The notes below the pieces were generated by a model. That model was given only the letters and a program-made list of their open reading frames with translations. It did not search any database and was not told the origin of the DNA. Position numbers and translations under genes: made by a program. From NCBI RefSeq assembly GCF_003334355.1, contig NZ_QOWP01000024.1: a stretch of DNA of 64,000 nt. One strand, 5' to 3'. Positions 30,779 to 40,266 of the stretch are shown here, one piece after another (the stretch's first letter is position 1; every line of letters starts with the position of its first letter). The stretch comes from Escherichia coli (GTDB lineage: Bacteria; Pseudomonadota; Gammaproteobacteria; Enterobacterales; Enterobacteriaceae).

Positions 30779-31537
30779 TTACTCCATACGCCGGGCAACA
30801 ATAAACAGACGCGGAAATGCCAGCAGTATCTGTCCGTTCTCTTGCAGTGGATACTGCTCTTCCAGCATCTGATGGTAGCGCTTAAGAAAAAGCTGCTGTT
30901 CGCTCTCGGTCAGATCCTGTAACCACGGACGTAATCCAGTGGCAGTCACCCAATCGATAATCGCCTGGTGTGACGGCATCTGGTGATAGTAGGTGGTTCG
31001 CCAGATATCGACCTCACATCCGGCTTCGCTCAAAATATCGTAGTAAGCATGAACGCCAGCCAACGGCTCACGCCCGCGATCCGGGTAGTTTTGTTCCCAG
31101 GCAACTTCGCGCATGAGCACATGGGTCGGCTCCAGCCAGTTATCTGGCATCTGTACTGCCAGCACGCCCTGCGGATTAAGTAAAGAAACCAGATGAGGAA
31201 ACAATTCGTAGTGGTCGGGCAGCCATTGCAGTGAGGCATTAGCAAAAATCAGATCGAGTGCCTGTACCGGTTGCCAGTTGCGGATGTCTGCTTCCACGAA
31301 CTGGCAGTCTGGCAAAGCACTGCGCGCTTCAGCAATCATCGCCGGAGACGAGTCGATGCCTGTTATCCTGGCCGCAGGCCAACGTTGTTGTAGAAGGGCG
31401 GTGCTGTTACCTGGGCCACAGCCAAGATCGGCAACATATTCGACATTTTCCAGCGGCACTCTGGCAAGCAGCTCCACCGCCGGACGCGATCGTTCAGCGG
31501 AAAAGTGCAAATATAAAGAGGGGTTCCAGTCAGACAT
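30779..31537 (-). CDS. tam: Trans-aconitate 2-methyltransferase
   Basis: 252-aa ORF with a SAM-binding motif ([12 protein letters not shown]). Confidence 0.85.
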
Positions 31538-31593
31538 TTTTTTACTCCCGTCAGCGCGTTACCCCAATTGTAGATAAAATTGATAAATTCGCC

Positions 31594-31884
31594 TCACGGC
31601 ATCAAACCATTGAACAGACGTTTTTTACGCGGCCCGGTCATTAAAGATTCCAGTTTCGCGACACAGGTTTTGTAGTGGGGCGTGGTTTTATGGAACGCCA
31701 CTGCGTCTTCATCTTTATAGGCTTCGTAGATATAAAAGCGCGAATTCACTTCCGGGTCCTGTAAGACATCGAAGCGCAAATTGCCTTCTTCCTGTACAGA
31801 GCCCAGGTGGTTCTGGCGAAAAACTTCGATAAACTCGTCAACCTTGTCTTCATGAACGTTAATTTCAACCAGTGTGACGTGCAT
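31594..31884 (-). CDS. lsrG: Phospho-AI-2 isomerase LsrG
   Basis: 96-aa antibiotic-biosynthesis-monooxygenase-fold ORF at the end of the lsr operon. Confidence 0.85.
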
Positions 31885-31907
31885 AATTCTTCTCCTTAGA
31901 TCCGCAG

Positions 31908-32783
31908 TTACTGTTTTTCACTCAGATAGAGTTCATATGCTCGATCAGCCGTTTCGTTATGGTGAACCACCGCCTGTACGGCTTTCATCATCGCCACCGG
32001 ATGGTCAGACTGGAAAATATTACGCCCCATATCCACACCAGAAGCGCCCTGATCGATAGCCTGCCAGCACATTTCCAGCGCCTCGCGCTCCGGTAATTTT
32101 TTACCGCCAGCAATAACAATGGGTACCGGACATCCGGCAACAATCCGTTCAAAACCTTTTTCGACATAATAGGTTTTGATAATTTGCGCCCCCATTTCAG
32201 CGGCGATTCGAGTCGCGAGCGAGAAATAACGCTGATCGCGCACCATATCTTTGCCCACGCCAGTCACGGCCATGGTCGGCATTCCCACTTTCATTCCGGC
32301 ATCAACCAGCTGAATAATATTTTTGATCGACTGATGTTCATATTCGCTGCCGATATAAACCTGCGCCGCCACCGCGCAACTGTTCAGGCGCACGGCGTCA
32401 TCCATCGATAACGCCACGGCTTCATTACTTAATTCCGCCAGAATAGAGTTCGCACCTGACGCCCGCAGTACCACCGGCCTATTGGTCGCAGGGGGAACTA
32501 CGCTGCGCAAAATGCCGCGCGTACACATTAATACATCGGCATGTTCAAACAGCGGGGCGATATTTATATCAATGCGTTCAAGTCCGGTAGTCGGTCCCTG
32601 AAAATAACCATGGTCAAAAGCCAGCATCACGGTTTTACCCGTTTTCGGATTAAATATCCGCGATAAGCGTGACTGCATTCCCCAATCCAGCGCACCGCAA
32701 CCTTTCAGGGTAAAAGGGATATTTTTTTGCGGTTGATCGGTACGAAAATCTTTACCATCTTTAATATCGTCTAAATCTGCCAT
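31908..32783 (-). CDS. lsrF: 3-hydroxy-2,4-pentanedione-5-phosphate thiolase LsrF (class I aldolase family)
   Basis: 291-aa DeoC/FbaB-type aldolase-fold ORF. Confidence 0.85.
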
Positions 32784-37393: not shown

Positions 37394-37641
37394 ATTTCCC
37401 CCGTTCAGTTTTGCAGGTGAGTTTTGAACAAATGTATTTCTGCTTTTAATTTGTTCATAACCTTAGGTGGACATTGCACATATTTCCGACGAATAGATCA
37501 CAATTTATGCTATTTTGATTTTCACGGTTGCGTTTGTTCATGCTCGTAGAGTCAAACTGTGGTTGCCATCACAGATATAAATGAGCAAGAACTGAACAAT
37601 TGCATTAAAGATTTAAATATGTTCAAAGTGAAGAATGAATT
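37394..37641. promoter_or_regulatory. Divergent lsrA / lsrR promoter-operator region
   Basis: 248-bp AT-rich intergenic region between divergent lsrACDBFG and lsrRK. LsrR and CRP are known to act here; individual sites were not mapped. Confidence 0.5.
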
Positions 37642-38595
37642 ATGACAATCAACGATTCGGCAATTTCAGAACAGGGAATGTGTGAAGAAGAACAGGTCGC
37701 GCGGATCGCGTGGTTTTACTATCACGACGGGCTGACCCAGAGCGAGATCAGCGATCGTCTCGGCCTGACACGTTTGAAAGTGTCGCGATTGCTGGAGAAA
37801 GGGCATCAGTCCGGCATTATTCGCGTACAGATTAATTCTCGCTTTGAAGGCTGTCTGGAATATGAAACTCAATTACGTCGTCAGTTTTCGCTGCAACATG
37901 TCCGGGTGATCCCTGGGCTTGCGGATGCTGATGTCGGTGGGCGACTGGGGATAGGCGCGGCGCATATGTTGATGAGTTTACTTCAACCACAACAGATGCT
38001 GGCGATTGGTTTTGGCGAGGCAACCATGAATACGCTGCAACGCTTAAGTGGTTTTATTTCGTCACAGCAAATTCGCCTGGTCACGCTCTCCGGTGGCGTC
38101 GGTTCTTATATGACGGGAATCGGGCAGCTTAACGCGGCGTGCAGTGTGAATATTATTCCGGCTCCGTTGCGGGCATCCTCCGCTGACATTGCCCGTACGC
38201 TAAAAAATGAAAATTGCGTCAAAGATGTTCTGTTAGCCGCGCAAGCAGCGGATGTGGCGATTGTCGGCATTGGTGCTGTGAGTCAACAGGACGATGCGAC
38301 AATCATTCGCTCCGGTTATATCAGCCAGGGCGAACAGTTAATGATTGGCCGAAAAGGGGCGGTTGGCGACATTTTAGGCTACTTTTTTGATGCAAAAGGT
38401 GACGTTGTCACGAATATCAAAATACATAACGAACTGATTGGCTTACCTTTAAGCGCGCTGAAGACCATACCCGTCCGGGTTGGCGTGGCAGGGGGAGAAA
38501 ATAAAGCCGAAGCAATTGCCGCTGCAATGAAAGGCGGTTATATCAACGCACTGGTTACCGATCAGGACACAGCAGCGGCGATTTTACGTAGTTAA
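37642..38595 (+). CDS. lsrR: SorC-family repressor LsrR
   Basis: 317-aa ORF with an N-terminal HTH and a sugar-phosphate-binding domain. Confidence 0.9.
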
Positions 38596-38673
38596 ATTTG
38601 CATGACCTTATTACCGGGAATGATGGAGAACGTATAGAGGAACAGACAGAACGCATAAGCCGAGGATAATCTA

Positions 38674-40266
38674 ATGGCTCGACTCTTTACCCTTTCAGAA
38701 TCAAAGTACTACCTGATGGCGCTGGATGCAGGCACCGGAAGTATTCGGGCTGTGATATTCGACCTGGAAGGCAATCAAATAGCAGTGGGACAGGCGGAGT
38801 GGCGGCATCTGGCAGTACCGGACGTTCCTGGTTCTATGGAATTTGATCTCAACAAAAACTGGCAACTGGCGTGTGAGTGTATGCGCCAGGCGCTGCACAA
38901 CGCCGGCATAGCCCCGGAGTATATCGCTGCCGTTTCGGCATGTTCGATGCGTGAAGGCATTGTTTTATATAATAATGAAGGAGCCCCGATCTGGGCCTGC
39001 GCCAATGTGGATGCCAGAGCGGCACGCGAAGTTAGCGAACTTAAAGAACTGCACAACAATACCTTTGAAAACGAAGTTTATCGCGCGACCGGACAAACAC
39101 TGGCTTTAAGTGCCATCCCCAGATTACTTTGGCTGGCGCACCATCGTTCCGATATTTACCGTCAGGCATCAACCATCACCATGATCAGCGACTGGCTGGC
39201 CTATATGCTCAGCGGCGAACTGGCGGTGGATCCCTCTAACGCTGGCACCACGGGACTTCTTGATCTAACCACCCGTGACTGGAAACCTGCATTGCTGGAT
39301 ATGGCTGGCCTACGTGCCGATATTCTTTCTCCTGTCAAAGAAACCGGCACATTGCTGGGCGTGGTAAGTTCACAAGCGGCGGAACTCTGCGGTCTGAAGG
39401 CGGGCACTCCGGTGGTCGTTGGAGGAGGCGACGTGCAGCTTGGTTGCCTTGGGTTAGGCGTTGTGCGTCCGGCACAAACCGCGGTTCTTGGCGGCACATT
39501 CTGGCAGCAAGTTGTAAATTTAGCCGCGCCGGTGACAGACCCAGAAATGAACGTGCGCGTTAATCCTCATGTTATTCCTGGCATGGTACAAGCTGAATCT
39601 ATAAGCTTTTTTACCGGACTCACCATGCGCTGGTTCCGCGATGCTTTCTGTGCCGAAGAAAAACTGATTGCCGAACGTTTAGGCATCGACACCTATACGC
39701 TGCTGGAAGAGATGGCCAGTCGGGTGCCGCCTGGGTCGTGGGGCGTAATGCCGATCTTCTCCGACAGAATGCGCTTTAAAACCTGGTATCACGCTGCGCC
39801 TTCCTTTATTAACTTGTCCATTGACCCGGATAAATGTAACAAAGCGACATTGTTCCGTGCGCTGGAAGAAAATGCGGCGATTGTATCAGCGTGTAACTTG
39901 CAGCAAATTGCTGATTTCTCGAATATTCATCCTTCATCGTTAGTCTTTGCAGGCGGAGGTTCAAAAGGGAAATTATGGAGTCAAATTCTCGCTGATGTCT
40001 CGGGATTACCCGTCAATATTCCGGTGGTCAAAGAAGCCACTGCATTAGGATGTGCCATTGCAGCTGGCGTCGGTGCCGGAATTTTTTCATCAATGGCAGA
40101 AACCGGAGAACGCCTGGTTCGCTGGGAACGGACGCACACACCAGACCCGGAAAAGCATGAACTTTATCAGGATTCACGCGATAAGTGGCAGGCAGTTTAT
40201 CAGGATCAGCTGGGGCTGGTTGATCATGGACTGACGACGTCGTTATGGAAAGCGCCTGGGTTATAG
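38674..40266 (+). CDS. lsrK: Autoinducer-2 kinase LsrK (FGGY carbohydrate kinase family)
   Basis: 530-aa FGGY-kinase ORF (LDAGTGSIR). Confidence 0.9.

Follow-up and report, generated by a model that had tools for sequence, protein, structure and literature searches.

Between positions 30779 and 40266 of a 64,000-nucleotide (nt) stretch of Escherichia coli DNA (contig NZ_QOWP01000024.1 of assembly GCF_003334355.1, the whole stretch being called the window hereafter), our analysis revealed the lsr genes for the uptake and processing of autoinducer-2 (AI-2), and it is nearly certain that they make up the canonical Lsr system of E. coli, intact and with the same protein sequences as in K-12. A preliminary description, made from the letters of the sequence, had given this range as the complete AI-2 locus. 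In fact the range does hold the complete locus, but it also takes in tam and thus counts nine genes, and the lsr genes proper lie at 31594-40266. Among the open reading frames (ORFs) listed for 29000-42500, seven minus-strand frames stand in a row (tam and lsrGFBDCA) and are followed by two on the plus strand (lsrR and lsrK); lsrACDBFG occupies 31594-37393 on the minus strand and lsrRK, divergent from it, occupies 37642-40266 on the plus strand. This divergent layout, with tam following lsrG, matches the K-12 arrangement exactly, just as had been described.

Gene content, integrity and identity

The nine genes are listed below, where the bits are scores of a profile search against NCBIfam, each set against the curated equivalog cut-off of its own model as the criterion of membership, and where differences are counted against K-12 MG1655.

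30779-31537, minus strand: tam, trans-aconitate 2-methyltransferase, 252 amino acids (aa); NF002463 equivalog, 447 bits against a cut-off of 297; 2 synonymous differences
31594-31884, minus strand: lsrG, phospho-4,5-dihydroxy-2,3-pentanedione (phospho-DPD) isomerase, 96 aa; NF007791 equivalog, 191.8 bits against 135; 0 differences; PDB 3qmq
31908-32783, minus strand: lsrF, 3-hydroxy-5-phosphonooxypentane-2,4-dione thiolase, 291 aa; NF006081 equivalog, 559.9 bits against 297; 1 synonymous difference; PDB 3gkf/4p2v
32810-33832, minus strand: lsrB, periplasmic AI-2 binding protein, 340 aa; NF011937 equivalog, 700.1 bits against 384; 0 differences; PDB 5gta
33844-34836, minus strand: lsrD, permease, 330 aa; NF011612 equivalog, 597.3 bits against 500; 1 synonymous difference
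34836-35864, minus strand: lsrC, permease, 342 aa; NF011961 equivalog, 669 bits against 388; 0 differences
35858-37393, minus strand: lsrA, ATP-binding cassette (ABC) transporter ATPase, 511 aa; NF011967 equivalog, 958.3 bits against 586; 1 synonymous difference
37642-38595, plus strand: lsrR, repressor of both lsr operons, 317 aa; NF011947 equivalog, 618.6 bits against 486; 0 nt differences from b1512; PDB 4l5i/4go1
38674-40266, plus strand: lsrK, autoinducer-2 kinase, 530 aa; NF008187 equivalog, 1000.9 bits against 528; 0 nt differences from b1511; PDB 5ya0

The claim that all eight lsr genes are present and uninterrupted held when they were compared gene by gene with the annotated copies of MG1655: all are open, start with ATG, have no internal stop and keep the MG1655 lengths. 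The alignment to K-12 that had been proposed as a check gave 100% amino acid identity for nine of nine proteins, tam included, and across the nine genes only five nucleotides differ from MG1655, all synonymously (one each in lsrA, lsrD and lsrF, two in tam). Moreover, a megablast search with 30000-41500 matched 5,423 of the 5,426 complete E. coli genomes, the top matches being 99.9-100% identical and bearing the same gene names, so the window is E. coli chromosome; since thousands of annotated E. coli chromosomes share the stretch at 99.9-100% identity, the pattern is not due to chance. For example, strain PSS-12 is 100% identical over 30000-41500; for 40267-64000 the best match is 99.9% identical. 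The window runs opposite to the MG1655 reference, 18675-64000 corresponding to K-12 1620209-1574883 and 1-12390 to K-12 1632636-1620248.

All nine proteins exceed their own equivalog cut-offs, the Lsr proteins by 1.2- to 2-fold, and LsrK, LsrR, LsrB, LsrF and LsrG match the listed solved structures of the same names over their full length. The parts of an Lsr system are found together, namely an FGGY-family kinase (LsrK), a SorC/DeoR-type repressor (LsrR) divergent from the transporter operon (37642 against 37393), an ABC transporter of LsrA, LsrC, LsrD and LsrB, the processing enzymes LsrG and LsrF, and a shared control region with two LsrR boxes and a CRP-like site. One might instead read the cluster as a generic transporter of the pentose or ribose type with a sugar kinase and an aldolase, not specific to AI-2. 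LsrA, LsrC, LsrD and LsrB are clearly homologous to components of the Rbs, Als, Ara and Xyl transporters, LsrK shares homology with xylulokinase and LsrF with class I aldolase-like enzymes, and a recent preprint argues that AI-2 may have started out as a nutrient substrate (bioRxiv 10.64898/2026.06.09.730415). Yet the models of the related sugar-transport, kinase and aldolase families all score far below their own curated cut-offs (for example RbsA, 391.6 against 745, and XylB, 192.4 against 380) while the Lsr equivalogs score above theirs, and the proteins of the window are identical to proteins of K-12 with an established AI-2 function and established structures. We leave the generic reading hardly any probability at all; the identity to K-12 has in effect refuted it. 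With each of the eight proteins above its Lsr equivalog cut-off and 100% identical in amino acids to an experimentally characterised K-12 protein, the gene names first assigned are the right ones, and the canonical Lsr system is the reading followed below.

Control region

The features of the control region are as follows.

37394-37641: divergent lsrA/lsrR control region, 248 bp, identical to K-12 at 248 of 248 positions
37425-37457: LsrR box adjoining lsrA, palindromic, TGAACAAATGTATTTCTGCTTTTAATTTGTTCA, 32-64 bp upstream of the lsrA ATG, from the repeat and inverted-repeat search
37558-37573: CRP-like site TGTGGTTGCCATCACA between the LsrR boxes, with 1 mismatch to TGTGA-N6-TCACA
37593-37625: LsrR box adjoining lsrR (p-lsrR-box), TGAACAATTGCATTAAAGATTTAAATATGTTCA, containing the published AACAAT (37595-37600) and AAGATTTAA (37608-37616)

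The two LsrR boxes emerged from a repeat search of 37394-37641 as two 33-nt palindromic copies. In the whole 64-kb window the exact pattern TGAACA-N21-TGTTCA has two sites, both of them the LsrR boxes of this region, and a search of the same window for further boxes, including one upstream of yneO that would tie the neighbouring autotransporter gene to LsrR, gave two-mismatch hits at chance level only. Two boxes in the lsr promoter region have been reported to be bound by LsrR (PMC5137460), and the spacer of the lsrR-side box, 37601-37607, lies at -208 to -214 from the lsrA start codon, which is exactly the position in that report. As for the CRP-like site, the dependence of lsr on CRP and the presence of CRP sites between lsrA and lsrR have both been described (PMC3182856; bioRxiv 10.64898/2026.06.09.730415).

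Gene junctions

The preliminary description had noted two overlaps and proposed that they suggest translational coupling. Both sizes are exact.

35858-35864, minus strand: overlap of the lsrA stop and the lsrC start, 7 nt, ATGCTGA (lsrC ATG and lsrA TGA), with AGGAGG 4 nt upstream of the ATG; coding strand CAGGAGGCGTCATGCTGA
34836, minus strand: overlap of the lsrC stop and the lsrD start, 1 nt, TAATG, with GGGAGG upstream; coding strand GGGAGGCCGCATAATG

At both junctions the overlap of stop and start goes with a Shine-Dalgarno sequence lying within the upstream ORF, AGGAGGCGTCATGCTGA at lsrA/lsrC and GGGAGGCCGCATAATG at lsrC/lsrD. The remaining junctions are short gaps, each with its own Shine-Dalgarno sequence: 11 nt for lsrD/lsrB, 26 for lsrB/lsrF, 23 for lsrF/lsrG, 56 for lsrG/tam and 78 for lsrR/lsrK. 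For comparison, three annotated lsr loci were taken from a tblastn search of LsrK against a plasmid collection, with the starts as annotated in the records.

Window (E. coli): lsrA/lsrC, 7-nt overlap; lsrC/lsrD, 1-nt overlap
Salmonella enterica: lsrA/lsrC, 7-nt overlap; lsrC/lsrD, 4-nt overlap
Enterobacter hormaechei: lsrA/lsrC, 4-nt overlap; lsrC/lsrD abutting
Sinorhizobium meliloti pSymB: lsrA/lsrC, 8-nt overlap; lsrC/lsrD, 4-nt overlap

By the annotated starts of these three loci, tight or overlapping A/C/D junctions are kept across Gamma- and Alphaproteobacteria. Because the Shine-Dalgarno sequences lie inside the upstream genes and the tight junctions are conserved in distant taxa, it is plausible that LsrA, LsrC and LsrD, the three subunits of the membrane complex, would be translationally coupled.

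Several of the lsr-bearing "plasmid" records resemble chromosomal DNA (NZ_CP092913.1, NZ_CP058189.1 and NZ_CP141089.1), and among such records are an E. coli "plasmid" of 4.9 Mb, a linear record of 80 kb from Salmonella that includes tpiA and pfkA, and a circular one of 67.6 kb from Enterobacter that includes rlmG, sstT and uxaC. They are probably mislabelled or misassembled, and hence we draw no inference from them about lsr on plasmids.

Mechanism and activity in this strain

The genes present, their integrity and their identity to K-12 can be read directly in the window, as can the operator and CRP motifs, while the mechanism is established K-12 knowledge carried over by sequence identity, following the pathway summary of PMC3595036 and general knowledge. 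AI-2 would be bound by periplasmic LsrB and imported through the ABC transporter formed by the ATPase LsrA with LsrC and LsrD, three subunits whose translation is probably coupled by the lsrA/lsrC and lsrC/lsrD overlaps with their internal Shine-Dalgarno sequences. The imported AI-2 would then be phosphorylated by LsrK, and phospho-AI-2 would free LsrR from the two palindromic boxes of the 248-bp control region; the release of LsrR, together with bound cyclic AMP-CRP, would induce both lsrACDBFG and lsrRK by positive feedback. Finally, phospho-DPD would be isomerised by LsrG, and LsrF, a thiolase dependent on coenzyme A (CoA), would move the acetyl group to CoA to give dihydroxyacetone phosphate and acetyl-CoA, by which the signal is ended. 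The strain of the window can therefore very probably still import AI-2 and destroy it.

Nothing in the sequence counts against the canonical reading. The luxS, crp, cya and phosphotransferase system (PTS) genes required by the circuit all map outside the window; luxS was found in every natural E. coli strain examined in one study (PMC3595036). A simple scan of the control region found no sigma-70 consensus promoter, an outcome to be expected where promoters are activator-dependent. Moreover, two genes of a nearby PTS island (12391-18674) are frameshifted, hence small indels do exist in the assembly or the strain; none lies inside lsr. The frameshifts may come either from gene decay or from indel errors of the assembly.

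A rival possibility is that the locus is intact in sequence yet silent or non-functional, owing to changes elsewhere (luxS, crp/cya, or ptsI and HPr) or to consensus-assembly errors that hide frameshifts. E. coli loses Lsr function often and quickly (PMC3595036), most of the locus is missing from about 23% of complete genomes, and the frameshifted genes nearby, those for PTS IIC and the porin, belong to the very sequence under study. On the other side, the eight ORFs and the control region are identical to functional K-12 or differ from it synonymously, and the published pseudogenisation of lsr proceeds mostly through large truncations (PMC3595036), none of which occurs in the window. We regard a silent locus as highly improbable and keep to an intact and working Lsr system as the expectation for this strain.

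Transcript ends and the place of tam

A terminator-like hairpin lies immediately behind lsrK.

40271-40311, plus strand: hairpin with a 12-bp stem, followed by a U run, that begins 5 nt past the stop of lsrK; -17.4 kcal/mol, z = -4.13, with 0 of 200 shuffles as stable

It was found by folding, the consensus terminator scan having missed it owing to the 12-nt loop region, and it is plausibly the terminator of lsrRK. A second stable hairpin at 40342-40365 on the plus strand has a 10-bp stem AGCTGGCTT...AAGCCAGCT and no U run (-16.7 kcal/mol, z = -3.37), and sits in the AT-rich 530-bp spacer between lsrK and yneO.

At the other end, no terminator turned up behind lsrG or tam in the consensus scan, and folding of the 56-nt lsrG-tam gap gave no significant structure or hairpin (z = +0.43). 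As the gap is without structure, read-through from the lsr promoter via lsrG into tam, and with it co-transcription, seems plausible; one paper uses lsrACDBFG-tam as the name of a transcription unit. The gene tam is convergent with yneE, their stop codons being 3 nt apart (window 30775-30779) so that there is no room for a terminator, and the same is seen in K-12.

Co-transcription may raise the question whether tam is a functional member of the operon that takes part in AI-2 processing, as the short gap with no terminator-like hairpin, a Shine-Dalgarno sequence of its own and the published name of the unit might suggest. However, tam is kept in the lsr-deleted genomes (about 940), where the 64-nt lsrG remnant alone is left. 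In Salmonella lsrG is followed by an epimerase gene and in Enterobacter by ygjG, and S. meliloti has no tam near lsr. The protein itself is above the cut-off of the trans-aconitate methyltransferase equivalog. A role in the pathway is thus most unlikely, and tam was rejected as a candidate member, being without lsr linkage outside E. coli and retained in strains that have lost lsr. The earlier statement that tam follows lsrG and is unrelated to AI-2 stands.

Neighbourhood of the locus

Next to lsrK, at 40797-46217 on the plus strand, lies an intact AIDA-type autotransporter gene of the ECSE_1600 family encoding 1806 aa (NF011422 over its full length, 4174.8 bits against 2335). Its K-12 counterpart yneO (b4696) is a pseudogene through one extra G at K-12 1594125, corresponding to window 44758, and the PSS-12 copy is annotated as frameshifted.

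Over 1-64000 the divergence from K-12 is a mosaic, in which 24000-29000 and 31600-51000 show about 0-3 differences per kb and the flanks 10-20, the usual signature of recombination tracts. The second tract covers lsr, yneO, hipBA and ydeQRST, and its lsr-yneO-hipBA block of roughly 20 kb (about 31.6-51 kb) hardly departs from K-12, against a difference of 1-2% in both flanks. This near-identity amid diverged flanks, together with the joint loss of lsr and yneO in B2-type strains, is what the idea rests on that lsr, yneO and hipBA form a module of "social behaviour", inherited together and exchanged recently, in which a surface adhesin would be tied to AI-2 uptake; as against an accidental recombination tract and a co-deletion, we hold this idea to be very unlikely.

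The PTS island mentioned above is a 6.3-kb segment at 12391-18674, between eamA and marB, which is not in K-12 but is present in 2,495 of the 5,426 genomes. It carries genes for a GntR regulator, the IIB, IIC and IIA components of a cellobiose-type PTS, a 6-phospho-beta-glucosidase and a carbohydrate porin. The gene for IIC is broken up into two ORFs (13729-14418 and 14388-15089), and PSS-12, whose sequence is 100% identical across the island, has its porin gene annotated as frameshifted. In an Rfam scan of the whole window at the gathering threshold, no RNA element was found in lsr; the sole hit is STnc560 at 9690-9903 on the plus strand (281.9 bits), in the position of the K-12 small RNA MgrR locus between mgtS/mgtT and dgcZ.

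Distribution and loss in E. coli

At least 80% of the stretch from lsrG to lsrK is held by 4,175 of the 5,426 complete E. coli genomes (77%). About 940 of the 5,426 match at only 90-95% identity, and in the listed examples, among which are NC101, SF-173 and Seattle 1946/ATCC 25922, the match is the 64-nt 3' end of lsrG. For example in NC101 the order is tam, lsrG remnant, hipB, the autotransporter gene next to lsr having disappeared along with it. In such B2-type strains the deletion of lsr and yneO leaves the 64-nt lsrG 3' remnant before an intact tam and joined to hipB (NC101 5945-6251), and tam may have its own promoter in the preserved stretch that lies upstream.

The polymorphism in the presence of lsr, its link to Shigella, adherent-invasive E. 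coli (AIEC) and most extraintestinal pathogenic E. coli (ExPEC), and its origin mostly in large truncations were described in 2012 (PMC3595036), and a 2026 preprint counts the operon in 75% of 19,795 Enterobacteriaceae genomes (bioRxiv 10.64898/2026.06.09.730415). The "complete" state of lsr is real, and it is also common and previously catalogued. The trait of AI-2 uptake and destruction has been lost in about a quarter of sequenced E. coli, notably in B2/ExPEC, AIEC and Shigella lineages, and our result is a useful annotation line for the strain which makes no addition to the understanding of Lsr, a system whose genetics, biochemistry and structures have been worked out on proteins with the same sequences as those of the window.

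Comparison with known systems

The lsr-deleted lineages of E. coli have their lesions at the same chromosomal site as the window locus, between tam and hipBA. In NC101 everything from lsrG (except its last 64 nt) through lsrK, along with the yneO autotransporter gene, is gone, and in LA3 an IS1 stands in place of lsrB through the 5' part of yneO; neither lesion is in the window.

The Lsr system was reportedly first defined in Salmonella enterica. The locus there resembles that of the window in its divergent lsrACDBFG and lsrRK, its 7-nt lsrA/lsrC overlap, its overlapping lsrC and lsrD, and a LsrK that is 83% identical. It differs in having an epimerase gene (lsrE) after lsrG in place of tam, in a C/D overlap of 4 nt against 1 nt, and in its neighbourhood, with tpiA and pfkA. 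More remote is the Lsr-like (ait) locus on pSymB of Sinorhizobium meliloti. Like the window it has lsrA-C-D-B divergent from a regulator and lsrK, with overlapping A/C (8 nt) and C/D (4 nt); unlike the window it has a LsrK of only about 54% identity, a class II aldolase in the place of lsrF after lsrB, a gene of the LsrG-like monooxygenase fold after lsrK, and a megaplasmid location.

Against these, the lsr locus of E. coli K-12 MG1655 (lsrK b1511 to lsrG b1518 with tam b1519, NC_000913.3 1598617-1608104) agrees with the window in gene order, orientation and gene lengths, in all distances between genes and both overlaps, and in the sequences of all nine proteins and of the 248-bp control region. 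The two differ by the five synonymous substitutions and by the flanking autotransporter gene yneO, which is intact in the window and frameshifted in K-12. The locus thus shows no departure from the textbook Lsr system, is already known, and bears the protein sequences of K-12.

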